Shown here: positions 12,635 through 31,400 of the stretch, piece after piece
How the letters are laid out: each line of letters opens with the position of its first letter
Numbering within the stretch: the stretch's first letter is position 1
Origin: Candidatus Hydrogenedentota bacterium
Lineage (GTDB): Bacteria > Hydrogenedentota > Hydrogenedentia > Hydrogenedentales > JAEUWI01
NCBI GenBank assembly: GCA_034669905.1
Contig: JAXMOL010000001.1
Coordinates: 224,001 to 288,000 of the forward strand
DNA length: 64,000 nt
Direction of reading: 5' to 3'
Position numbers and translations under genes: made by a program
The notes under the pieces: generated by a model
Seen by the model: only the letters and a program-made list of their open reading frames with translations
Database searches by the model: none
What the model was told of the DNA's origin: nothing

Positions 12635-12867
12635 GGACGGCAAGGACCTCAAAGACGAAAAAGACCTAAGGGACGTTGTGAAAAATTCGCGGGCACTCGC
12701 AAGACTATTGGAGCAGAGCTCCACGGACTGCATTCCCAAGCAGAGCTTGGGAACGAGGGAAAGCCAACATTTCTTGCTCCGAGGATCAGCCTGGGAATGA
12801 GGGCCCTGAAAGCGTGTGCGCAATAGGTCCCTGTCCTTTACGTCCTTTCCGTCGTTTAGGTCCTTTC
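12633..12867. repeat. Composite repeat: AAGGAC 9-mer arrays in inverted orientation (12633-12675 forward, 12826-12867 reverse) enclosing a TTCCCAAG..CTTGGGAA palindromic element
   Basis: gggacggcaaggacctcaaagacgaaaaagacctaagggac ... ggagcagagctcc..tgcattcccaagcagagcttgggaacgag ... gtcctttacgtcctttccgtcgtttaggtccttt. Confidence 0.75.
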
Positions 12868-12925: not shown

Positions 12926-15900
12926 TCACCCCACTGCCACCAGCAGCCGCAACTCGCTGCCTTCCACCGTCACCACCTTGGCATCTCCGTCCGCCGCACC
13001 GCTCACCAGCGAATTGGCCAACACTTCCTGGGCGATATACTCGCGGAAGCCATCAATCGCCTCGTTCAACGATGCATCGTCGGTCGCATAGGTCACGGCG
13101 ATGCGCGCGTCGTAGGCGAGGTTTTGCTCTTTGCGGATGTCCTGCAGGGCGCGGACCACTTCGCGAACCAAACCCTCTTTCCGCAGTTCGTCGGTGATTT
13201 CTGTGGCGATGACCACCACCAACTGCTTGCCCTGGGCGGCGGCGAAACCTTCCTTCGGCGTGAGGCGCACGTCCACTTCATCGGCGGTGAGCACTTCCGG
13301 CTTACCATTCACTTCGATGGTGATGCCGCCATCCTGCACCTGGGCCGCAAGGGCCGCCCCATCGGCACCGGCGAGGGCCTTGCGGACCTGCTGGACGTTC
13401 TTCCCGAAGCGGGGTCCGAGGACCTTGAAGTTGGGCCGCACTTCGTAGGAAACGTATTCTTCCGGGCTGTCCGTGAAGGCCACTTCCTTGATGTTCAATT
13501 CTTCCTGGATAAGGTCGAGGTGTTTCTCGAGGGCAGCGCGCTGGTCGGCATTGGCCACGACGAGTTCGCAGAGCCCCAGGGGCTGACGCACCTTGATGTT
13601 TTCTACACGGCGGGCACTGAGTCCCAGCGTCACGGCCTCGCGGGTGAGGGCCATCTGGTCCAGCAGCCCATGGTCAATGGTGGCCCCGTCGGCTACCGGG
13701 TAGGTCGCCAGGTGGACACTGTCCGCCGCACCAGCCACGGGTTTCGCCAGGTTGCGCCACGTCACTTCTGCGAAGAAGGGCGTGAAAGGCGCGGCCAGAC
13801 GGGCCAGCTTGATGAGGCATTCGTAGAGCGTCCAATAGGCATCGGCCTTGTCTTCGCTCCAGCCACTCGCCCAGAAGCGCGCACGACTCCGGCGCACATA
13901 CCAGTTGGAGAGGCTGTCCACAAAGCCGGAAACTTCACGGGCTGCCGGGTAGGTTTCGTAGGTATCCAGGGCACCCCGGGCATCGACGATAACCCGGTCG
14001 AGCTCGTTGAGGATCCACTGATCCAACTCAGCGCGTTCGGCCACCGGGCGATAGACCGCATCGCCCCCGGTGCCCCCGGCAGGTGCGGCGGCGGGGTCGG
14101 CGAAGAGTTCTTTCAACACGGCCTGGGGCGCACTGGACGGATCAAAGCCATCCAGGTTCGCATAGATCACGAAGAAACTGTAGACGTTGTACCAGCGCAT
14201 CAACAGTTCGCGCTGGGACTCTTCCACGATGCGCTCGGAAAGGCGGCTGCTGTTCGTGGGCGGGTTCTTGGCGATAAAGCTCCAGCGCAACGCGTCGGCA
14301 CTGAACTTTTCGAAAAGGAGGCCCGGCTCGCTGTAATTCTTCAGACGCTTCGACAACTTGAGGCCGTCTTCCCCGAGGATGTGTCCGAGGCAAATGCAGT
14401 TTTTGAAGGGATGGGGCCAGGGGCCTTTTTCTTTTCCATGAACCACCGTGCTGATGGCCAGCAGGGCATAGAACCAACCCCGCGTCTGGTCAATGGCTTC
14501 ACTGATAAAGTCGGCCGGGAAGCGCTCGTTGAACTTTTCCGCAGAACCTTCCACGTGGGGATAGCCCCACTGGGCGAAGGGCATGGAGCCCGCGTCAAAC
14601 CACACGTCGATGACTTCCGTCACACGGCGCATGCGCCCTTCAGGATCCTTGGGACTCTGGAAGGTTACGGCATCGATATAGGGCTTGTGGACCTTGAGGT
14701 GCTCACTGAGTTCGGGTGTTTCGGCCTTGGCCTGCTCCCAGACCTCGGTGCCTTCGAGGCCGGGCTTGGCGAGCAACTCGTCGTAGGAGCTGATGCATTC
14801 CATGTGGCCCGTCTTGTCGCAAATCCACACGGGCAGGGGCGTACCCCAATAGCGCTCGCGGGACAGGGCCCAGTCCACGTTGTTTTCGAGGAAGTTACCA
14901 AAGCGGCCATCGCGGATGTGCTGGGGCTGCCAAGTGATCTCCTTATTATTCGCCACGAAATCGTCTTTGAACTGGGAGGTCTTGATAAACCAGCTCTTCC
15001 GCGCGTATTGGATGAGGGGATCATTCTCCGCACGGGGACAGAAGGGATAGGAGTGTTTGTATTGCTCGTGTTTAAAGAGGTGTCCCCGCTCTTTCAAGAC
15101 ACGGAGAATGCCCTTGTCCGCGGCCTTACAGAACTGGCCCGCAATGGGGCTCTGGTCGTAGGGGTCCACATCGGTGACGCGCTCGTCGAAGGTGCCATCG
15201 GGCTTCACATAACAAAGGAATCCAATGCCGCTTTCCTTGCAGACGCGGTAATCGTCTTCACCGAAGGCCGGGGCCATATGGACGATGCCCGTACCGGTTT
15301 CGAGGTCCACAAAATCACCCGCGATAACCATCCAGTGTTTTTCGGAAACCGCGTCGGGATTTTCCATGGCGGCCGGGGTGCCGTAGTTAAAGAGGGGCTC
15401 GTAGCGCACACCCAGGAGATCGCTCCCCTTGAGCGTCTGAACAATCTCCGCCTCTTCGCCGAAATACTTGCTGACGAGGGCCTGGGCGAGAATCAGCATC
15501 TCGTGGCCGGATTCGGTCGCGTGCTTTACCACGGCGTAGTCCGTCTCGGGGCCCACGCACGCCGCGCAGTTGCTCGACAGGGTCCAGGGGGTCGTCGTCC
15601 AAATGAGGAGACCCGCGTCTTCCCCTTCCAGGTTGAGGGCTTGCTTGCCATCCTCCGTGAGGGAGAGTTTAATCGTGACCGCGGGGTCGTCCACGTCGCG
15701 GTAGCCTTCACCCACTTCGCCCGCCGAAAGGGCTGTGCCGCCCTGGGCCCACCACCACACGACCTTATGGCCCTGATAGAGGAGGCCCCGGTCGAAAAGT
15801 TGCTTCAGGGCCCACCACACACTCTCCACATAACTCTGGTGGAAGGTGACATAGGCCTCGTCCAGGTCTACCCAGAAACCAATACGGTCCGTGAGTTGTT

Positions 15901-16312
15901 CCCATTCCTGCTTATAGCGGAAGACCGACTCAATGCAGGTGCGGTTGAACTTCTCCACGCCGAATTCTTCGATGGCTTCTTTACCGCCATCGATGATACC
16001 CAGCTCTTTGCAGACCTCGATTTCCACGGGCAGTCCGTGGGTATCCCAGCCGGCTTTGCGCTCGCAGAAATTGCCCGACATAGTCTTGTAACGGGGGAAG
16101 ATGTCTTTGATGGTGCGCGTCAGGCAGTGGCCCGGGTGGGGCATCCCGTTGGCCGTGGGAGGCCCTTCGTAGAACACGAAACGGGGCGCATCTTTCCGCT
16201 GTTCCAGACTTTTTTTATAGGTCTGGTGTTCTTTCCAGAACGCGATGGTCTCCTTTTCCGCCTCGGCAAAGTTAAAGGGGGACGGGACCGGTTCAAAGGC
16301 ATCGTTAGACAT
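12926..16312 (-). CDS. ileS: Isoleucine--tRNA ligase, type 2 (eukaryote-like)
   Basis: FYEGPPTANGMPHPGH, GWDTHGLPVE, WTTTPWTL, DWALSRERYWGTPLP, DQTRGWFY, KLSKR, LSNWYVRRSR. The long C-terminus (VRQPL, EG..REVVRALQDIRK) is type-2-like. Confidence 0.97.
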   Translation of the reverse strand: MSNDAFEPVPSPFNFAEAEKETIAFWKEHQTYKKSLEQRKDAPRFVFYEGPPTANGMPHPGHCLTRTIKDIFPRYKTMSGNFCERKAGWDTHGLPVEIEVCKELGIIDGGKEAIEEFGVEKFNRTCIESVFRYKQEWEQLTDRIGFWVDLDEAYVTFHQSYVESVWWALKQLFDRGLLYQGHKVVWWWAQGGTALSAGEVGEGYRDVDDPAVTIKLSLTEDGKQALNLEGEDAGLLIWTTTPWTLSSNCAACVGPETDYAVVKHATESGHEMLILAQALVSKYFGEEAEIVQTLKGSDLLGVRYEPLFNYGTPAAMENPDAVSEKHWMVIAGDFVDLETGTGIVHMAPAFGEDDYRVCKESGIGFLCYVKPDGTFDERVTDVDPYDQSPIAGQFCKAADKGILRVLKERGHLFKHEQYKHSYPFCPRAENDPLIQYARKSWFIKTSQFKDDFVANNKEITWQPQHIRDGRFGNFLENNVDWALSRERYWGTPLPVWICDKTGHMECISSYDELLAKPGLEGTEVWEQAKAETPELSEHLKVHKPYIDAVTFQSPKDPEGRMRRVTEVIDVWFDAGSMPFAQWGYPHVEGSAEKFNERFPADFISEAIDQTRGWFYALLAISTVVHGKEKGPWPHPFKNCICLGHILGEDGLKLSKRLKNYSEPGLLFEKFSADALRWSFIAKNPPTNSSRLSERIVEESQRELLMRWYNVYSFFVIYANLDGFDPSSAPQAVLKELFADPAAAPAGGTGGDAVYRPVAERAELDQWILNELDRVIVDARGALDTYETYPAAREVSGFVDSLSNWYVRRSRARFWASGWSEDKADAYWTLYECLIKLARLAAPFTPFFAEVTWRNLAKPVAGAADSVHLATYPVADGATIDHGLLDQMALTREAVTLGLSARRVENIKVRQPLGLCELVVANADQRAALEKHLDLIQEELNIKEVAFTDSPEEYVSYEVRPNFKVLGPRFGKNVQQVRKALAGADGAALAAQVQDGGITIEVNGKPEVLTADEVDVRLTPKEGFAAAQGKQLVVVIATEITDELRKEGLVREVVRALQDIRKEQNLAYDARIAVTYATDDASLNEAIDGFREYIAQEVLANSLVSGAADGDAKVVTVEGSELRLLVAVG

Positions 16313-16828
16313 GGAGCAGGCTTCCTTCGCTAGGGGCGACGGGTTGTTGTGTTTATACCGGGAGCAATACGCACTTTCCGCCCCGAAAACAGGTTCCGGC
16401 ACCACAGAAAGGGATTAAACGGCCGAAAATGGCGTACCAAGCCCAATATGATCGCTTTTCAGGGCCAGATCATGCAACTTTTGGACGAATTTGGGGAATT
16501 GGGCGGTGTGAAGCGGGGCGATAGCGTGGCACGGTCGGGTTACTGCTATTCGTCACGGCACCATGTGGCACCGGTCACAGGGCAGGCCTTTCAATATCAT
16601 GAGCAGTCAACCAAGAAATAAAACGACAAGCCTTCGTGCCACGCGTTCCGGTATATCGCAACGTGTGTAGGGCGCAAGGCTGGGCGGTGCATGGTAGCGA
16701 TCTGAACCCTCTGTATCTCAACACGAGACCATCACGAGAGTGGAAGAGCGCGGATTGCCGCGACGAAGGCGGGAGGTGCGTGGCGTAAGTTGTGGCAATC
16801 TAATGGTGTTAGGACAATCACACGTTTT

Positions 16829-16844
16829 TGGCACGGTGCTGGCT
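16829..16844 (+). promoter_or_regulatory. sigma54 (-24/-12) promoter, copy 1
   Basis: TGGCACGGTGCTGGCT against the consensus TGGCACG-N4-TTGC(A/T): one mismatch, exact GG-N10-GC spacing, conserved in copy 2. Confidence 0.8.
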
Positions 16845-16940
16845 TCACACTCCCATACGCCGTGTGGCGTACGAACAATTGAACGTAAACGTCGATGAAT
16901 CCATCCGCGATTTGCAGGGAAAAGCCAGGAGGAATTTACT

Positions 16941-17075
16941 ATGAACACTATCGAACTCAACGAACTGAACCATGAAGTGACTGTCGAAGAAGCCAACAAC
17001 GTTGTCGGCGGCTACAAACTCAAGAACGTCGTGGTTTCCAGTTACAAGCTCAAAAACGTCGTTGTATCCAGTTAA
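16941..17075 (+). CDS. 44-aa double-glycine-leader peptide precursor MNTIELNELNHEVTVEEANNVVGG-YKLKNVVVSS-YKLKNVVVSS (not in the ORF track)
   Basis: AGGAGG RBS 8 nt upstream of the ATG; EVTVEEANNVVGG leader; core decapeptide repeated with only synonymous differences; paralog at 17604. Confidence 0.85.
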   Translation: MNTIELNELNHEVTVEEANNVVGGYKLKNVVVSSYKLKNVVVSS

Positions 17076-17154
17076 GGTGCCTGCGGCCTGTTCGGTGGCC
17101 CGCGCCACCTGATAGTAGTCCGAGACGGCCCAATACGGATACGAGATTAACGAC

Positions 17155-17208
17155 CACAAAAACGGCTGGTGCCCCGCACATCGTGGGCGCACCGCCGTTT
17201 TTTTTTGT
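17155..17208 (+). terminator. Intrinsic terminator of peptide cassette 1
   Basis: aaaaacggc-tggtgcccc-gcacatcgt-gggcgcacc-gccgttttttttt. Confidence 0.85.
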
Positions 17209-17491
17209 ATGGGTGGCCCGCGAATCGACAAATCGGCATTGTGCGCCTCGAATCCCGATTGGACCAAGCACCAGCCCAAAGGATGTCCCCAAGGGTCGTG
17301 CCGCACGAACCGGTATCTCGGTATCATTCGCCCCGTGCAAGGATGGGCGTTGCATAGTATCGAACTGAGGCCACCGTGTCTGAACACGAGACCATTGTAA
17401 GAATACGATACCCCGGCCTGGCCCGTCGGAGACGGGAAGTTCGCGGCGTAAGCCGCTGAATTATATGGGTGTTATGACAATCATACGTTTT

Positions 17492-17507
17492 TGGCACGGC
17501 GCTGGCG
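17492..17507 (+). promoter_or_regulatory. sigma54 (-24/-12) promoter, copy 2
   Basis: TGGCACGGCGCTGGCG with GG-N10-GC spacing, at the same distance from the ATG as in copy 1. Confidence 0.75.
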
Positions 17508-17603
17508 CTACATTCCTATACGCCGTGGGGCGTGCGAGCAATTGAACGTAAACGTCGATGAATCCATCCGCGATTTGCAGGGAAGAACCAGGAGGAATTT
17601 ACT

Positions 17604-17774
17604 ATGAACACTATCAAAATCAAAGAACTGAACCATGAAGTGACCGTTGAAGAAGCCAACAACGTCGTCGGTGGCTACAAATACAAACTCACCAACGTCG
17701 TAGTTTCCAGTTACGATACCTCCGGTCAAGCCGACGCTACTCGCCGCAACCCATCGCTCAAAACGAGTCGTTGA
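17604..17774 (+). CDS. 56-aa double-glycine-leader peptide precursor MNTIKIKELNHEVTVEEANNVVGG-YKYKLTNVVVSSYDTSGQADATRRNPSLKTSR (not in the ORF track)
   Basis: Same RBS and UTR as copy 1. Leader residues 8-24 are identical to copy 1 and differ at 4 nucleotides, all synonymous. Confidence 0.85.
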   Translation: MNTIKIKELNHEVTVEEANNVVGGYKYKLTNVVVSSYDTSGQADATRRNPSLKTSR

Positions 17775-17806
17775 CACCGTTCAGGAGCGTAACGGGGTTA
17801 CGGATG

Positions 17807-17856
17807 ACAAGAACGGCAGGTGCCTGCACAATGTGCATGCGCCGCCGTCTTTTTGT
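17807..17856 (+). terminator. Intrinsic terminator of peptide cassette 2
   Basis: aagaacggc-aggtgcctgcaca-a-tgtgcatgcgcc-gccgtcttttt, homologous to the terminator of copy 1. Confidence 0.8.
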
Positions 17857-18025
17857 TCGGAAGAACAGACCGACGTCCGGCAACTTTGGTGGGTCTTGAT
17901 TCCTCTTGGAACTAGATCTGGGGGACTCTTTTGCCGATGGCCATTCGTATTTCAGTATCTAATTCGCAAGTTAAACCACCCCGAGATTCCAGCCGCAACC
18001 AGATAACCCCCACTCGGTGACGCCC

Positions 18026-19978
18026 TCAGGGCACCACGTGGTAGAGGTTATAGGGCTGACTTTTCAGCACGGGCTCCAACTGCAGCCTCATCTCACTCGG
18101 GGCCAGGATATAGTCAAACCCATAGGCCTCGGCGAGGACGTGCCACTCCTCTTTCGTCCGACTGGGCCAGCTGGCAAGGGGTTCCTCCGTCATATCCCCA
18201 TCCACAGGAAAGCCGTAGACATCGGCGTGCATCTTCTTGAGGCTCGGGGCCAGATAACGCAGGTAGGTCATGTGGTGAGCGGCCTGGTAGTCCGCGAAAA
18301 TCGGATGGCGGGTTTTGGCGAGCCAGGCCACGTCCCAATAGGGCGGTACAAGCATGGCATCCGACTCGCCCCGTTCGGCGAGATAATCTACCACCTCCTG
18401 CTGCAAGGGGTGGACGGGCAGCTGTTCCCGATGGGCGAGTTGGCCCACGAGGAGTTGGGCTCCCAGGGTCAGTAAGAGGATTCCCTGGTAGGCACCTACC
18501 GGCCCGGCAAGCTCGCCCAACTTCTCGAAGCGAATAAGCACCGCTGCCACGACCAATCCCGCAACCAGAGCGGCCAGCGCAAAGGGCGATAGTCCCGCGA
18601 GGAGAAAAGCGCCGCACACGGCAAAAAGCAGCGGGAGGAAGAGCGAGCGCCCGTGCACCATGCGTGCATAACCCAGGGCGGCCAAAGCACCGCCACACAG
18701 GAGCCACAGGGCCGTGTCGGGATTGTTGAAGTAGCGGGTCGCCAAGCCTTCGGGGAGTATCACTTGCCAAAGAGGACCGAGGGACACCCACAACAAGATC
18801 AGGCACACAAAGATGCGGGAAGCAAAGGGGGGCCAATCGTTGGTGCCTGGCGTCCGCGCCAGCAATCCCAGGGCCAGGGGCACCAACAGAATGGCCAGGT
18901 GATTGGTCAGGCGGTAGGGCATCCAACCCAACAGCAAGAAGGGTATCTCCCCGCCGACCACCTGATGCACCAGCCAGATGAGTCCCACAACGGTGGCGAG
19001 AATGCCCGCATAGAGCGTGACCCAGCCTCGGTCCCGTTCTCCCATGGCCTGTCCCCGCTCCAGGGCGAGGCTGCCGCCGGCCATCAACAAGACCAGCGCC
19101 ACCCCCACTCCACTTTTCCAGAAGGGATTGAGCCGGGCGAAACCGCGATGGAGATCATAGCGCTCCGTGTAGGCCGCCCAGATGGCGTGGGTATCACCCG
19201 TGGCCGCGTAGGCCCCTTCGGTGGGCAAGGGCACGTGAAGACGCGACTGGATGGCGTAGAAAATCACGCAGGGCACCAATCCCAAAGCGAAATAGCCCAA
19301 GGCCTGCACGACCCGCCTATGGTCCCGCTGATAGCAATAGATAAGCCACTGCACCCCGGCCACGGCCCCAATAACGGGTAGTTGTCCGATATGGATGGCC
19401 ACCATGAGCCCCAGGAGAAGCCAGACGGTCCGCCAGCAATCATAGAGCAACAGGGCAAAGACCAGTAGCGCGTAGCCCGTGCCGATTTGTCCGATGGCAT
19501 ACATGTGGGGCCAGGATTCGATAGGGTAGTAACTCTGCAGGCCCTGATGAATGCCCAACAAAACCAATACGACAGCGATATGGCCATACCACGTCTTTCC
19601 GGAAAAACGGGTGCCCAGCAAGAAGACCGGTACGGTGCAGAAAACAAGCTGGAGCACGTTGCGGTAGCCATTCACGAGAAGGGGCGAATCCACGAAGTGC
19701 AGCACCAGCGCCGACAGGTAGCTCTGCCCACTGAAGACATTCCGGCAATATTGATAGCAGGGATGGCCCTCGGGATAGGGCACGAGGCCCGTGATCAGGA
19801 GGGCGTGCTCATAGGTCTCTTCCCAGCGAACGCCGCGTAGTGCGACGGCGAAAAGTGAAAAAGCGACCCAGCCGAGGCTGCCATACCACAATGATCGAAA
19901 GTCGATGGACTGCTTTTCTTGTTGACGTGCCGAGGAAATAGCGATGGCTCCCGTAGTGCGTTGGAAGGAAGGCCCCAT
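18026..19978 (-). CDS. Large polytopic membrane protein, possibly GT-C-like; start uncertain
   Basis: Many hydrophobic segments, N-terminal VRWEETYE acidic loop, soluble C-terminal domain (LAEAYGFDYIL). Confidence 0.6.
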   Translation of the reverse strand: MGPSFQRTTGAIAISSARQQEKQSIDFRSLWYGSLGWVAFSLFAVALRGVRWEETYEHALLITGLVPYPEGHPCYQYCRNVFSGQSYLSALVLHFVDSPLLVNGYRNVLQLVFCTVPVFLLGTRFSGKTWYGHIAVVLVLLGIHQGLQSYYPIESWPHMYAIGQIGTGYALLVFALLLYDCWRTVWLLLGLMVAIHIGQLPVIGAVAGVQWLIYCYQRDHRRVVQALGYFALGLVPCVIFYAIQSRLHVPLPTEGAYAATGDTHAIWAAYTERYDLHRGFARLNPFWKSGVGVALVLLMAGGSLALERGQAMGERDRGWVTLYAGILATVVGLIWLVHQVVGGEIPFLLLGWMPYRLTNHLAILLVPLALGLLARTPGTNDWPPFASRIFVCLILLWVSLGPLWQVILPEGLATRYFNNPDTALWLLCGGALAALGYARMVHGRSLFLPLLFAVCGAFLLAGLSPFALAALVAGLVVAAVLIRFEKLGELAGPVGAYQGILLLTLGAQLLVGQLAHREQLPVHPLQQEVVDYLAERGESDAMLVPPYWDVAWLAKTRHPIFADYQAAHHMTYLRYLAPSLKKMHADVYGFPVDGDMTEEPLASWPSRTKEEWHVLAEAYGFDYILAPSEMRLQLEPVLKSQPYNLYHVVP

Positions 19979-20060
19979 TATAGACGGGAGCACGTGCAAA
20001 TTATAGGCAGAAAAATGGGCCTTTGCAGCGCATCGGGCAGGAGCGCGGGGTAGTTGCAAT

Positions 20061-20091
20061 CTCGTTCCCAAGCGCTGCCTGGGAATGCAGC
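20061..20091. repeat. CTCGTTCCCA..TGGGAATGCAG palindromic REP-like element
   Basis: ctcgttcccaagcgctgcctgggaatgcag; related copies at 12728-12757 (reverse) and 61985-62014. Confidence 0.75.
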
Positions 20092-20093
20092 CC

Positions 20094-20543
20094 CTATAGC
20101 GCCTTTACCAGAAAAAACTTGCTGTTCCCCTGGGAATCCCAATCGGCCAACTCGCCCCTGACCACATAGCCCGCCGCCTGGTAGAATTCCGGCGCCTGAT
20201 AGGCCATCGTGTCCACATAAGCATGGCAACAACCCCGCGCCACCGCAATGGCCTCCGCCATTTCGAGAAGCGCACGGCCGATGCCCTGCCCGCGCAAGGC
20301 TTCCTCCACGGCCATGACGTCGGTCTTGAGCCACGTGAATTGGGTCGTTCCGAATAGCCCACCCACCACTGAGCCTTTGCCGTCATAGGCAAGCAATTGG
20401 ATAGGTACCGCCTCGTTCTCTGTGCGCTCCCGGGCTTCCCAGAACGCCGGGTTGGCCCGTTGGTTGTGGTTGCGAAGGATCGTAAAGACCGTTTCCTGGT
20501 CGGCGTCGTGCATGTCATCGATGGATTCAATCTGAAAACGCAT
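20094..20543 (-). CDS. GNAT family N-acetyltransferase
   Basis: RGQGIGRALL acetyl-CoA motif; DTMAYQAPEFYQAAGY. Confidence 0.92.
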   Translation of the reverse strand: MRFQIESIDDMHDADQETVFTILRNHNQRANPAFWEARERTENEAVPIQLLAYDGKGSVVGGLFGTTQFTWLKTDVMAVEEALRGQGIGRALLEMAEAIAVARGCCHAYVDTMAYQAPEFYQAAGYVVRGELADWDSQGNSKFFLVKAL

Positions 20544-26622: not shown

Positions 26623-26976
26623 ATGATTACTGCGCCAGAAATGGAAAATGGTATTGCCATCGTGGCCTTTACCCAGGACAGCCTGGATGCGAGCAACACC
26701 AAGGTTTTCCGTGAAGCCATTCAGCCCGTGCTGGAAAACAACAAGAGCGTACTCCTGGATCTCTATGCCCTGCAGTTTGTCGACAGCTCCGGGCTGGGCG
26801 CCCTGCTCTCCTGTCTACGTGCCGTCAACGATGGCGGCGGCACCCTCGCCCTCTGCAACATGAGCAAACCGGTGCGCACCCTTTTCGAGTTGGTGCGCAT
26901 GTTTCGCATCTTCGATATCTACGCATCCCGCTTCGAAGCCCTCACGGCGATGAACGTGGGCACTACGCCAGAATAG
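26623..26976 (+). CDS. STAS-domain anti-sigma-factor antagonist
   Basis: LDASN..FVDSSGLGALL motif; the 3' end overlaps the convergent DUF1501 gene by 14 bp. Confidence 0.92.
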   Translation: MITAPEMENGIAIVAFTQDSLDASNTKVFREAIQPVLENNKSVLLDLYALQFVDSSGLGALLSCLRAVNDGGGTLALCNMSKPVRTLFELVRMFRIFDIYASRFEALTAMNVGTTPE

Positions 26977-28405
26977 GCTTCACCACGTGACCCGCCACAT
27001 CGGTCAGGCGGAAATCACGTCCCTGAAACCGAAACGTCATCTTGGTGTGCTCAATGCCCAGCAGGTGTAGAAGCGTCGCGTGGAAATCATGGACGTGGAC
27101 GACGTCCTCCACCGCGTTGTATCCAAAGTCGTCGGTCGCGCCGTGGGTGATCCCCCCCTGGACACCCCCTCCGGCCATCCACAGGGAAAAGCCCTTGATG
27201 TGGTGGTCGCGCCCGGAGCCCTGGGCCATCGGTGTGCGGCCAAATTCGCCGCCCCAGATGATCAGCGTATCTTCCAACATTCCCCGCTGGGCGAGATCCT
27301 TGACGAGTGCCGCCGAAGCCTGGTCCACCAGTTTTGCGGTGGTTTCCACCCCGCCCTTAATTCCCCCGTGGTGATCCCACCCGCGGTGATAAAGCTGGAT
27401 AAAGCGCACGCCCCGTTCCGCCATTCGCCGGGCCAACAGACAGTTCGCCGCAAAGCTGCCATCGGCCCCTTCCGTGCCATACATTTCGCGGATGTATTGC
27501 GGTTCGCTGGAAAAGTCCACCAGCTCCGGCACACTGGTCTGCATCTTGAACGCCATTTCGTACTGGCTGATGCGGGTCTGAATTTCCGGATCTTCGACCA
27601 CCCCATCCCGATGTTGGTTTAAGGTCTGCACGGCATCCACCACATCCCGTTGACGGGTCCTATTGATGCCTTCAGGATTACTCAGATACAGCACCGGGTC
27701 GCCCTGCGAATGAAACTGAACTCCCTGGTATTTGCTCGGGAGAAATCCGCTGTGCCACTGACGGGCCGCGATGGGCTGGCTTTGCCCACCCCCGACGGAA
27801 GTCAAGACCACGAAGCCGGGCAGGTTGTCCGCTTCGTTCCCCAGCCCATAGGTAATCCAACTCCCCATACTCGGGCGACCGGAGATGGAGGTGCCCGTAT
27901 TCATAAAGGTGTGGGCGGGATCATGGTTAATCTGTTCTGTCTTCATGGACCGGATAATGCAGATGTCATCGGCGATACTGCCGATGTGTGGAAACACGGT
28001 CGCGATTTCCTGCTGCGACTTTCCGTACCGTGCGAAAGGATGCTGGGGGGCCAGACATTTGAGCTCTTTCCCCTGCAGCTGGGCAATAGGCTGGCCGGCC
28101 GTAATAGATTCCGGCATGACCTGTCCGTCGAGCTCGGCCAACTTCGGCTTGTAATCGAAAGACTCCAGATGGGATGGCCCACCCGCCATATAGAGGTAAA
28201 TGACCCGCTTGGCCTTGGGCACCTGATGGCGTGGCGTAACCAGCCCGTAGCGCAACGATTCCTCGAGGGAGGGCTTCGCGACGGCCGACGCGCTCTGCTG
28301 CATCAGGCCCGCCAGCGCAACCGAACCAATGCCCCGGGCCGCCTTACCGAAAAACTGCCGCCGTGTCTGCTTCAGTTGAAGATCGTGGTAATTCATGGGA
28401 TTCAC
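26963..28405 (-). CDS. DUF1501 family Tat-exported protein
   Basis: TRRQFF signal; AKRVIYLYMAGGPSHLESFDYKP; GWDHH; WGGEFGRTP; GRDHH. Confidence 0.93.
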   Translation of the reverse strand: MNPMNYHDLQLKQTRRQFFGKAARGIGSVALAGLMQQSASAVAKPSLEESLRYGLVTPRHQVPKAKRVIYLYMAGGPSHLESFDYKPKLAELDGQVMPESITAGQPIAQLQGKELKCLAPQHPFARYGKSQQEIATVFPHIGSIADDICIIRSMKTEQINHDPAHTFMNTGTSISGRPSMGSWITYGLGNEADNLPGFVVLTSVGGGQSQPIAARQWHSGFLPSKYQGVQFHSQGDPVLYLSNPEGINRTRQRDVVDAVQTLNQHRDGVVEDPEIQTRISQYEMAFKMQTSVPELVDFSSEPQYIREMYGTEGADGSFAANCLLARRMAERGVRFIQLYHRGWDHHGGIKGGVETTAKLVDQASAALVKDLAQRGMLEDTLIIWGGEFGRTPMAQGSGRDHHIKGFSLWMAGGGVQGGITHGATDDFGYNAVEDVVHVHDFHATLLHLLGIEHTKMTFRFQGRDFRLTDVAGHVVKPILA

Positions 28406-28421
28406 CTGATTGAGCCGTTTT

Positions 28422-31400
28422 TCAGCTGCGGGTTATGGTTTCGTGGAGATTCAGTATCACCCGGGTCACGGAGGTCCAGGCCGCCACATCGGCCGGCTCC
28501 AGGGCCTCAGCTGCCGGGGCGAGGCCCGCGCGGGTCACCGCCGTGGCGGACGCCTCGTCTGCCGTATATTCCATCAGATGTTTTTGATAGAGGGCACGAA
28601 GTACTTCCAACTCCTGCGCATCGGGTTCACGAGACAAGGCATAGCGAAACGCCAGGGCAATACGGTCGTCGCTTCGCTCACCCGCTTCGACCATGATACG
28701 TTGGGCAAAGACCCGGGCCGTCTCCACATAGGTCGGATCATTGAGGAGCACGAGGGCCTGCAGGGGCGTGTTGGAGATGGTGCGTTCGGCCGTGCACTCT
28801 TCCCGGTTGGGCGCGTCGAAGGCGAGTAAACTCGGGTGTAGAAAAGAGCGCTTCCAGAAGGTATAGAGGCCCCGGCGGTATTGGTTTTCTCCCTTGTCGA
28901 TGTCATAGGCCAATACCCCGCCAAAGGTGTTGCAGTTGGCATAATAGCCTTCCGGCTGATAGGGAAAAACGGAGCGGCCACCAATATGGGGCGCAAGTAG
29001 TCCGCTCATGGCCAGCGCTCCATCGCGAATTAATTCCGCCTCGACCCGGTAGCGGGATTGGCGCGCATAGAGTCGATTGTAGGGATCTTTCGCCCGGAGC
29101 ACGTCATTGCTTGCACTCGATTGACGGTAGGTCTTCGAGGTGACCAGGACCCGCACCATGTGTTTCAAATCCCAGCCGCTACCCACGAATTCGGTGGCGA
29201 GCCAGTCAAGCAATTGGGGATGGGTGGGCCACTCCCCCTGGGCACCGAGATCGTCGAGCACCTTGGAAATCCCAACGCCATAGAACCGCTTCCACAGCCG
29301 GTTCATCGTGACCCGTGCCGTGAGCGGGTTGTCTTCCCGCACCAGCCAGTTCGCCAAATCGAGGCGGGTCGCACGGCGCTCAGAGACACCCAGCTCCGGC
29401 AAGACGCCGGGCGTGTCTGGCAACACCACTTCGCCACTCTCGTCGAGCCAATTACCCCGCGGCAGGACGCGTACTACGCGTGGCTCGGGAAGGGATTTGG
29501 CAATCAGTGTGGTCGCCATACCGGCTTTCAGGGCATCGAGCTCGGCCTGCCTGGAATCCCGGGCCACCCGTTCAGACTGCAAATGAGGGGTAATCCCTCG
29601 AAAATAGTCCCCCAGGGCCTTCGCCTGCTCCGGGCTGCGCTCCGCCCGGGCCACGGCCAGGGTACTGCGAATCGCTTCTGGTAGGACCGGCCAGGGGGTG
29701 ACCTCCGTCCCATCGCTGGTATACCGAAGTCGAAAACAATCGCTCTGGTGGAACTTGTGGCCGGATTCGAAATGGAGCTTGACCTCAAGCATGCCGCCCG
29801 GCGCTGTCGACAGCGCCTCACGAAGCGCGAATACCGCCAGGTGGTCTTCTTTCTTGAGGTGACCGTCCACCGCCCAGCCGCGGTTTTTGTCTTCGTTAAG
29901 CGCATCGCTCACGGGGAAACGATCCTGCGCGTAGTCTGCCAACGCATAGGCCAGGGCAAGGGGCTGGGCTTCCTGCCCATCGGGGGCACGATACGCCACC
30001 GCAAACTGGGTCAGCACAAAATTACTGCCGCCCCGGGAAAGCCCATTGAGATCGGGGTGATTAAACACTTCGAGCATGAGGGATTGTATCGTCGCCCCGT
30101 CGGTGGGTAGCTGCAGGGCATAGACATCCCGCGCCTGGGCCTTGCCTTCCGCCAGGATGCGCCCATCTTCCAGCACGCGAAAGGTAGTTCCGCCATTGGC
30201 CTTTGTTTCGGTCGGCGTCATCACCTGCCAGCCTGTTGCTTCAAGCCCCTGTTTGCTCAAAGCGGTCTGAGACTCCCAGGCAGACTGGGCGACTTCCAGG
30301 GCCGGTGTCGTTTGGGAAAGCGTGGTGTCGAGCCCCGCGATGGCTGCCGTGAGCGCCGCCTCCCGTTCCGACTCCTCGGGTGTCGGCAGGTACATGAAGG
30401 GCGCCCACTTGGCGCCGGAGCGGTACACGCCATCTTCTTCGATGTCGGCAAAGAAAGCGGAAAACGCATAAAAGTCTTTGGTGCTGATGGGATCAAACTT
30501 GTGATCATGGCATTCGGCACAGCCCATGGTCGCCCCGAGCCAGACGGCCGTGGTGGTCCGCACCCGGTCTGCCGCGTACTTGGCGATATACTCTTTGGCC
30601 TGGGCACCGCCCTCGGCCGTGATCTGATTCAACCGGTTGTAACCCGAGGCAATGAGTTGCTCCCGCGTGGGGTCGGGCAGCAGGTCGCCCGCCAATTGTT
30701 CGCGGGTGAACTGGTCGAAGGGCATGTTGGTGTTGAAGGCGTTGATCACGTAATCGCGGTAGGCCGAGATGCTGCGAAACTCATCGCTGTGGTAGCCATT
30801 GGAGTCGGCATAGCGCACCACATCGAGCCATTCCATCGCCATGCGCTCCCCGTAGTGGGGCGATTGAAGCAGGCCATCTACCAGGCGCTCATAGGCATCG
30901 GGCGCGGCGTCATTGACATAGGCCTCCACGGCTTCCGGTGTCGGAGGCACACCGAGCAGATCCCAATAGAGGCGACGAATCACCGTACGTCGGTCGGCTT
31001 CCGGCATGGGGGTCAGACCCTGCCGCGACAGTTTGCGACCAACGAACGTATCGATGGGGTTCTGATCCGGCTCCAGGGCAGAGCGAGGGTCAACCGGCGG
31101 AAGATAGGCCCAGTGGGGTTCATAGGAAGCACCCTGGGCTATCCAGCGACGCAAGACCGCTTTCTCATCGTCCGTGAGTTGCTTCTTCTGGTCCACCGGC
31201 GGCATCTGGTCGTCTGGGTCCACCGCAAAAATCCGATGGATCAACTCGCTGGCGTCAGGATCCCCCGCGACGATGGCCGCTACCGTTTCGCCCTCGGGCG
31301 GTGGAATATCGAGGCGCAGATCGCCTTTGCGTGTGTTGGCGTCCGGCCCGTGACAGGCGTAGCATTTATCTGAAAGAATGGGGCGCACGTCGCGGTTAAA

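Follow-up and report, generated by a model that had tools for sequence, protein, structure and literature searches.

A decapeptide repeated in tandem at the end of a very short reading frame raises the question of what kind of gene encodes it and why it recalls a strand of Hcp, the protein forming the tube of type VI secretion systems (T6SS). The window, i.e. the whole stretch of 64,000 nucleotides analysed here, comes from a Candidatus Hydrogenedentota bacterium (GCA_034669905.1) and contains two such genes side by side. Both look like real genes, with selected, Hcp-derived cores, and belong to an unnamed family of export-type peptides.

Two peptide genes in tandem

The first gene (16941-17075, forward strand) encodes 44 aa. 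Its double-glycine leader (16941-17012, 24 aa) belongs to a leader family common to 8 other genes of the genome and ends with ...EEANNVVGG, directly followed by two copies of YKLKNVVVSS and the stop, so that the two units are the whole predicted mature part (17013-17075). Units 17013-17042 (TACAAACTCAAGAACGTCGTGGTTTCCAGT) and 17043-17072 (TACAAGCTCAAAAACGTCGTTGTATCCAGT) differ by 4 synonymous and 0 non-synonymous changes, all at third positions, as stated in the preliminary description, and this pattern has a low neutral probability (binomial P = 0.0024, with S = 6.7 and N = 23.3 sites). The repeat had also been said to be held at the amino-acid level. Purifying selection on the units agrees with it, but the identity between units is not kept across relatives: the tandem units are YRLSNVLVSS and YKLKDVIVTS in P0003, YRLTNVLISS and YKLKDVLVSS in P0012, each with the Hcp pattern. 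Since these units diverged yet keep the pattern, selection acts on the pattern and not on the identity between copies.

The second gene (17604-17774, forward strand) has a nearly identical leader (17604-17675), separated from the first by 4 silent and 3 replacement changes. As previously reported, its GG is followed by YKYKLTNVVVSSYDTSG, a longer Hcp strand which, together with a variable tail, forms the predicted 32-aa mature core (17676-17774). Both ORFs carry the ending ...EVTVEEANNVVGG with an acidic/hydrophobic pattern upstream, as in double-glycine leaders, and the GG is invariant among 11 aligned peptides of the family.

The promoter-leader unit was duplicated in tandem (16674-17636, forward strand; 663-nt spacing, 81% identity over 300 nt). 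In both genes a sigma-54 (-24/-12) promoter-like site of the type TGGCACG-N4-TGGC lies 112 nt upstream of the ATG (16829-16843 with 1 mismatch to the consensus, and 17492-17506, both forward), and an AGGAGG ribosome-binding site precedes each start (16927-16932 and 17590-17595, forward). At up to 1 mismatch, the level to which the background refers, such sites are present in 0.84% of 5000 random windows of 400 nt and in 9 of 25 peptide genes of relatives; at up to 2 mismatches they are present in 22 of the 25. With a matrix built only from 19 sites of relatives, those of the window rank 5th (gene 1) and 10th (gene 2) among 103 sites in the genome. No site of the T6SS cluster is present among the best 45 of these 103, and therefore we do not claim co-regulation with the T6SS. 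A consistent upstream activator motif was not found, GTATC/GATAC being present in 11 of 21 regions.

Each gene is followed by a terminator-like hairpin with a T tail on the forward strand (17160-17207, -28.1 kcal/mol, z -4.55; 17810-17856, -24.0 kcal/mol, z -3.44), neither of them flagged by a consensus terminator scan. The folding of the 5' UTRs is no stronger than in shuffled sequences (z -1.5 and -0.08), for which reason no RNA switch is claimed, and Rfam returned nothing at E ≤ 5 over 16300-18100. The flanking genes, both on the reverse strand, are ileS (12926-16405) and an unassigned membrane protein gene (18026-20071); none resembling an immunity or tailoring gene was recognised in this neighborhood. 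In G069 the orthologue of the window peptide also adjoins ileS. A 40-nt palindrome, probably a REP-like intergenic repeat, is present in two inverted copies (12718-12757 and 20061-20100, 85%).

Resemblance of the cores to Hcp

The proposed likeness to an Hcp strand was upheld by profile, shuffle, PDB, genome-window and large protein-set tests. Among 24,736 Pfam models, the best match of peptide 2 is Hcp (PF05638, E = 0.021), under the cut-off (15.6 against 23.5 bits) and limited to a single strand, thus not a full Hcp domain. Peptide 1 has no Hcp match in Pfam, and the orthologue from G069 matches the same Hcp region (E = 0.056). A profile of six peptides compared with 177,635 PDB sequences gave one match at E ≤ 10, which is the Hcp EvpC (E = 0.2). 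Peptide 2 alone returned nothing in a PDB sequence search, and its leads in the ESM Atlas all scored under 0.9.

An HMM of 119 Hcp proteins, a set gathered via the cores and hence biased, scored the window cores at 8.0 and 11.5 bits, values that none of 3000 shuffled sequences attained, placing the similarity above the shuffled background. An unbiased test of the Hcp likeness is offered by the genome itself: for the 17-residue core of peptide 2, the best of 4.29 million windows from long frames is the genome's own Hcp strand (score 42; the next is 32). Searching 1.84 billion proteins with a nine-peptide profile, we found 142 matches at E ≤ 0.001. Of these, 98 are no longer than 130 aa and 86 of the 98 fit the leader-plus-strand pattern; among the 44 longer proteins, 41 match the Hcp HMM, and PF05638 was recognised in 24 of 28 long matches run through Pfam.

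The peptide cores follow Hcp column by column (Y-E/K-L-K/E-N-V-x-V/I-T/S-S-Y). They align locally with positions of about 95-110 of the Hcp profile, in the long beta5/beta6 strand, and in the predicted structure of Hcp the segment falls within the long strand E91-111 (mean pLDDT 88, Z about 20 to solved Hcp structures). In the Hcp of A. baumannii, the hydrophobic core includes Leu102, Ile104, Leu106 and Val109, and the segment Ser112-Glu120 forms a pair with beta2 of the adjacent subunit (PMC4469607). Judging from residue spacing, the decapeptide would comprise the buried portion together with two interface-strand residues, and the core of peptide 2 probably spans most of the inter-subunit strand. 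Compared with Hcp/TssD (PF05638, TIGR03344; EvpC 3eaa, PA0085 1y12), the matching strand covers only 10-17 of about 160 residues and lies behind an export leader, and the peptide genes are outside the T6SS cluster and also present in genomes where TssC was not found.

The peptide family and its predicted exporter

In the host genome, this leader is encoded by ten genes spread over six contigs. Six of the cores start with YxKxGDIKG, a word from the N-terminus of Hcp, two with LLLPAVQ, and the other two are those of the window. Near-identical peptide genes at the start of contig C38 and the end of C47 (L009 and L010 in G000) are probably one tandem array broken by the assembly. Of the 89 candidate cores collected from loci and matches, 67 have an Hcp word, 17 have a pilin word and in 7 there is an FG-GAP-like word; 8 have no such word, and some of these 8 (several) are false ORFs. 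The words may be repeated (twice in window peptide 1, three times at C6:26285), reordered (in L135 the late strand comes ahead of the HKKWIDILS segment) and combined across unrelated families (Hcp, DUF1559 pilin and the FG-GAP-like word), and for this reason the native fold is not kept. The partner strand of the hairpin is present in only 13 of the 86 leader-plus-strand peptides.

One pilin-type core passes the cut-off of the H-X9-DG model TIGR04294 (34 against 19 bits), and another matches the N-terminal region of DUF1559 pilins at 49 places of the host with 41-55% identity. We presume the LLLPAVQ word to be of planctomycete type, the sole support being proteins P0245 and P0262; in the planctomycete genome G137 no match to a pilin-type core was found. 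VTLKRG, which we take to be gp19-like, and the word presumed to be FG-GAP-like obtained no support from Pfam for these labels. Longer mosaic proteins without the GG leader (P0245, P0262, P0038, P0223) contain Hcp and LLLPAVQ words between acidic spacers. Hcp or pilin words are also found on proteins with seemingly other export signals, recognised by eye in P0245 and P0262 and through PF07589 in P0045, which points to an extracellular role of the words.

The family is widespread and copies pilin motifs as well as those of Hcp. Named members elsewhere are from Alphaproteobacteria (Limibaculum, Paracoccaceae), and the two alphaproteobacterial genomes tested have a T6SS and a C39 exporter of different layout. 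A pattern scan of genome contigs found at least 119 stretches; 26 among the matches listed are in frame, mostly by chance, and 2 are family peptides (L118 and L135). Viral and metagenome scans gave one locus each, both judged to be chance matches. The plasmid matches are three records annotated as Hcp, and the one inspected is full length.

An exporter adjoins two family peptides on contig C6, composed of a C39 peptidase ABC transporter (27891-31058) and an HlyD protein (26691-27887) with the domains PF03412, PF00664, PF00005 and PF13437. The transporter joins two cNMP domains to the C39 peptidase and ABC parts. This locus also has a sigma-54 activator, a Cys-rich protein and one peptide with a different leader, and the PpiC-like protein encoded next to the exporter has a partial match to TIGR04500 (48.7 bits, cut-off 180). 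No known family of tailoring enzymes was found there. The Cys-rich protein (L006:1068-2207 and L007:4112-5338) has about 380 aa and no Pfam or NCBIfam family; it is close to unnamed Myxococcota clusters (score 0.97), with a weak YkgJ/CxxCxxCC lead (0.82), and adjoins peptide genes at C6, C3, G068 and G072. The peptide at the head of the operon with the Cys-rich protein and the sigma-54 activator (L006:694-900, G000:C6:23193) represents a second double-glycine type (RLDDL...VVGG, then SQGKLLFG) with its own strong sigma-54 site, and may serve as an autoregulatory signal.

Among 135 genomes of the phylum, 11 have peptides found in them and 12 have exporter matches. All 11 peptide-bearing genomes have the exporter (partial in G070 and G043), although they are kin and this co-occurrence does not count as independent evidence; in the twelfth, G071, the exporter is only 31% identical. 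The leader, the exporter and their co-occurrence support the predicted double-glycine export system. Precursor and exporter are of known kind, while the cargo of the window peptides is outside Pfam and NCBIfam: NCBIfam gave 0 matches, and Pfam only L_biotic_typeA (E = 0.13), on the leader and below the cut-off.

The host has a full T6SS on contig C9, away from the peptide genes of the window. The T6SS sheath gene TssC was not found in the peptide-bearing genomes G043 (92% complete), G072 (88%) and G070 (60%), the completeness of the last two being such that a missing TssC is no proof of absence; G064, which has TssC, yielded neither peptides nor an exporter. Because of these genomes, it is unlikely that the peptides belong to the weapon of the producer itself.

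Possible roles of the core words

Double-glycine peptides are known to serve as toxins, as pheromones and as precursors of RiPPs. Like class II bacteriocins, ComC-type pheromones and NHLP-Nif11 precursors, the window peptides have an acidic leader ending in GG and, in the genome, a C39-ABC transporter with HlyD, and the leaders of relatives weakly match TIGR01847, TIGR03949 and ComC. Unlike them, the cores of this family are copies of Hcp and pilin motifs, the genes are scattered, with sigma-54 sites and no immunity or known tailoring gene recognised next to them, and the exporter has two cNMP domains.

We favour the reading in which the peptides are exported linear mimics acting as decoys or signal ligands, giving it somewhat less than an even chance. 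In its favour are the loss of the fold order, the mixing of unrelated families, the rarity of the partner strand among the leader-plus-strand peptides and the presence of the words on proteins with seemingly other export signals. The sigma-54 promoters would be driven by the activator of the exporter locus, and the precursors would be cleaved after the GG by the C39 transporter and exported, possibly gated by its two cNMP domains. Outside the cell, the released words might bind a putative receptor or partner that recognises Hcp fragments, the tandem repeat raising the avidity. Such logic resembles that of flg22 in plants, where a conserved buried segment is sensed as a fragment; we know of no bacterial sensor of Hcp fragments, and none was found in the literature searched. 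For a broader proposal we see about equal chances of being right or wrong: several phyla would have a regulated and exported library copying the most conserved words of foreign surface machines (the T6SS tube and planctomycete-type pili), as natural mimics of MAMPs. These would block, deceive or set off the sensing of patterns among microbes, or would disarm those machines directly.

Whether the words are foreign to the producer depends on the word. Compared with the own Hcp, the gene 1 unit shows 3 of 11 identities, and compared with foreign Hcp strands as many as 9 of 11; it is closer to all 133 foreign Hcp tested than to the own one, the 133 being a biased set since they were chosen by similarity to these cores. 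The core of peptide 2 has 7 of 17 identities to the own Hcp and up to 12 of 17 to foreign ones, and its score with the own Hcp (42) equals the median of the same 133 (42; 58 are higher). As for the pilin word, PAVQ is in 0 of 47 own pilin N-termini. Given the scores of peptide 2, only gene 1 and the pilin words are clearly non-self. Four near-identical genes of 143-aa type IV pilins (G000 C16:126770, C55:33097, C2:214138 and C6:189118) have sigma-54 sites closely resembling the ones found at the peptide genes.

The cores could instead enter neighbouring cells and disarm the T6SS of rivals by poisoning the folding or ring assembly of Hcp through strand exchange, and in the same way the pilin-type cores could act on pili, which we find doubtful. 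Since Hcp assembles in the cytoplasm, uptake into the target cells would be required; besides, the producer has its own T6SS and no immunity-like gene beside the peptide genes was recognised. The location of the core in the long strand of the predicted Hcp model is consistent with such a poison, as are the non-self character of the gene 1 unit and the probable span of peptide 2 over the equivalent of Ser112-Glu120. There are designed precedents: synthetic tandem repeats prone to aggregation (Pept-ins) enter E. coli and kill by aggregation, according to PMC5830399, and a baseplate-mimic peptide (BCP) blocks T6SS baseplate assembly, according to PMC8406304. As these sources present them, both are short copies of a segment of the target itself, and Pept-ins are also tandem repeats, with basic residues; they are designed, whereas the present family is natural, and many of its cores are not of aggregation type. 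Among natural proteins, the prophage P-FimU pilus mimics (PMC12952977) and the tail-assembly blocker Tab (PMC10884400) likewise imitate or disturb parts of filaments; they are encoded by phages, act in or on their own host and are not exported double-glycine fragments. It had been suggested that the peptides add a strand to tubes. This is possible, but the gene 1 decapeptide and the members ending in SSYS appear to stop where the inter-subunit strand starts, and many sister peptides copy other motifs instead, such as the N-terminal strand or the pilin helix.

Extracellular self- or co-assembly into beta-sheet fibres or a matrix, either amyloid-like or as an Hcp sheet split among complementary peptides, is in our view unlikely. 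The unit is a tandem strand rich in Val, Ser, Asn and Tyr, further Hcp segments are found in other peptides of the genome, and the secreted mosaic proteins P0245 and P0262 repeat the words between acidic spacers, all in agreement with assembly; against it, neither the pilin word LLLPAVQKVREAA, presumably helical, nor the GDIKGES words are typical of amyloid, and the position-by-position conservation of Hcp exceeds what a generic beta-propensity needs. We regard as very unlikely that the peptides are RiPP substrates modified by the Cys-rich and PpiC-like proteins, with an Hcp likeness resulting from the capture of gene fragments. The Cys-rich protein adjoins peptide genes at the four loci mentioned above and the exporter-adjacent gene partially matches TIGR04500, which would fit modification, but Cys is rare in the cores (8 of 98) and no known tailoring family was found. 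The related suggestion of a multi-core RiPP found no support, as neither a spacer nor a recognisable site of cleavage separates the units, no tailoring enzyme was recognised beside the window genes, and the conservation follows Hcp.

The open literature searched has no description of the peptide family, and neither there nor in the libraries searched is there a family with cargo cut from conserved cores of the secretion tubes and pili of other microbes. With 10-35 residues and no evident modification, the cores are open to immediate synthesis and testing. If they block Hcp assembly, they would be natural T6SS inhibitors, and if they are ligands, bacteria would sense conserved protein patterns. 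Should the library of MAMP mimics be true, it would represent a new class of interbacterial effectors and imply receptors for Hcp and pilin fragments. Many short genes that have no annotation, or are annotated as fragments of Hcp, would also find an explanation in this family.

Other unusual contexts of Hcp were noticed during the survey. In Hydrogenedentota, Hcp domains are found behind N-terminal segments resembling signals or anchors (L047, L049, L050 and L059, from G076, G077, G072 and G003, respectively). P0180-P0187, P0196, P0204 and P0226 are large proteins in which six Hcp domains follow one another in tandem, and some of them also have planctomycete-extracellular, dockerin or Ig parts; the arrangement looks like an entire Hcp ring in a single secreted chain.
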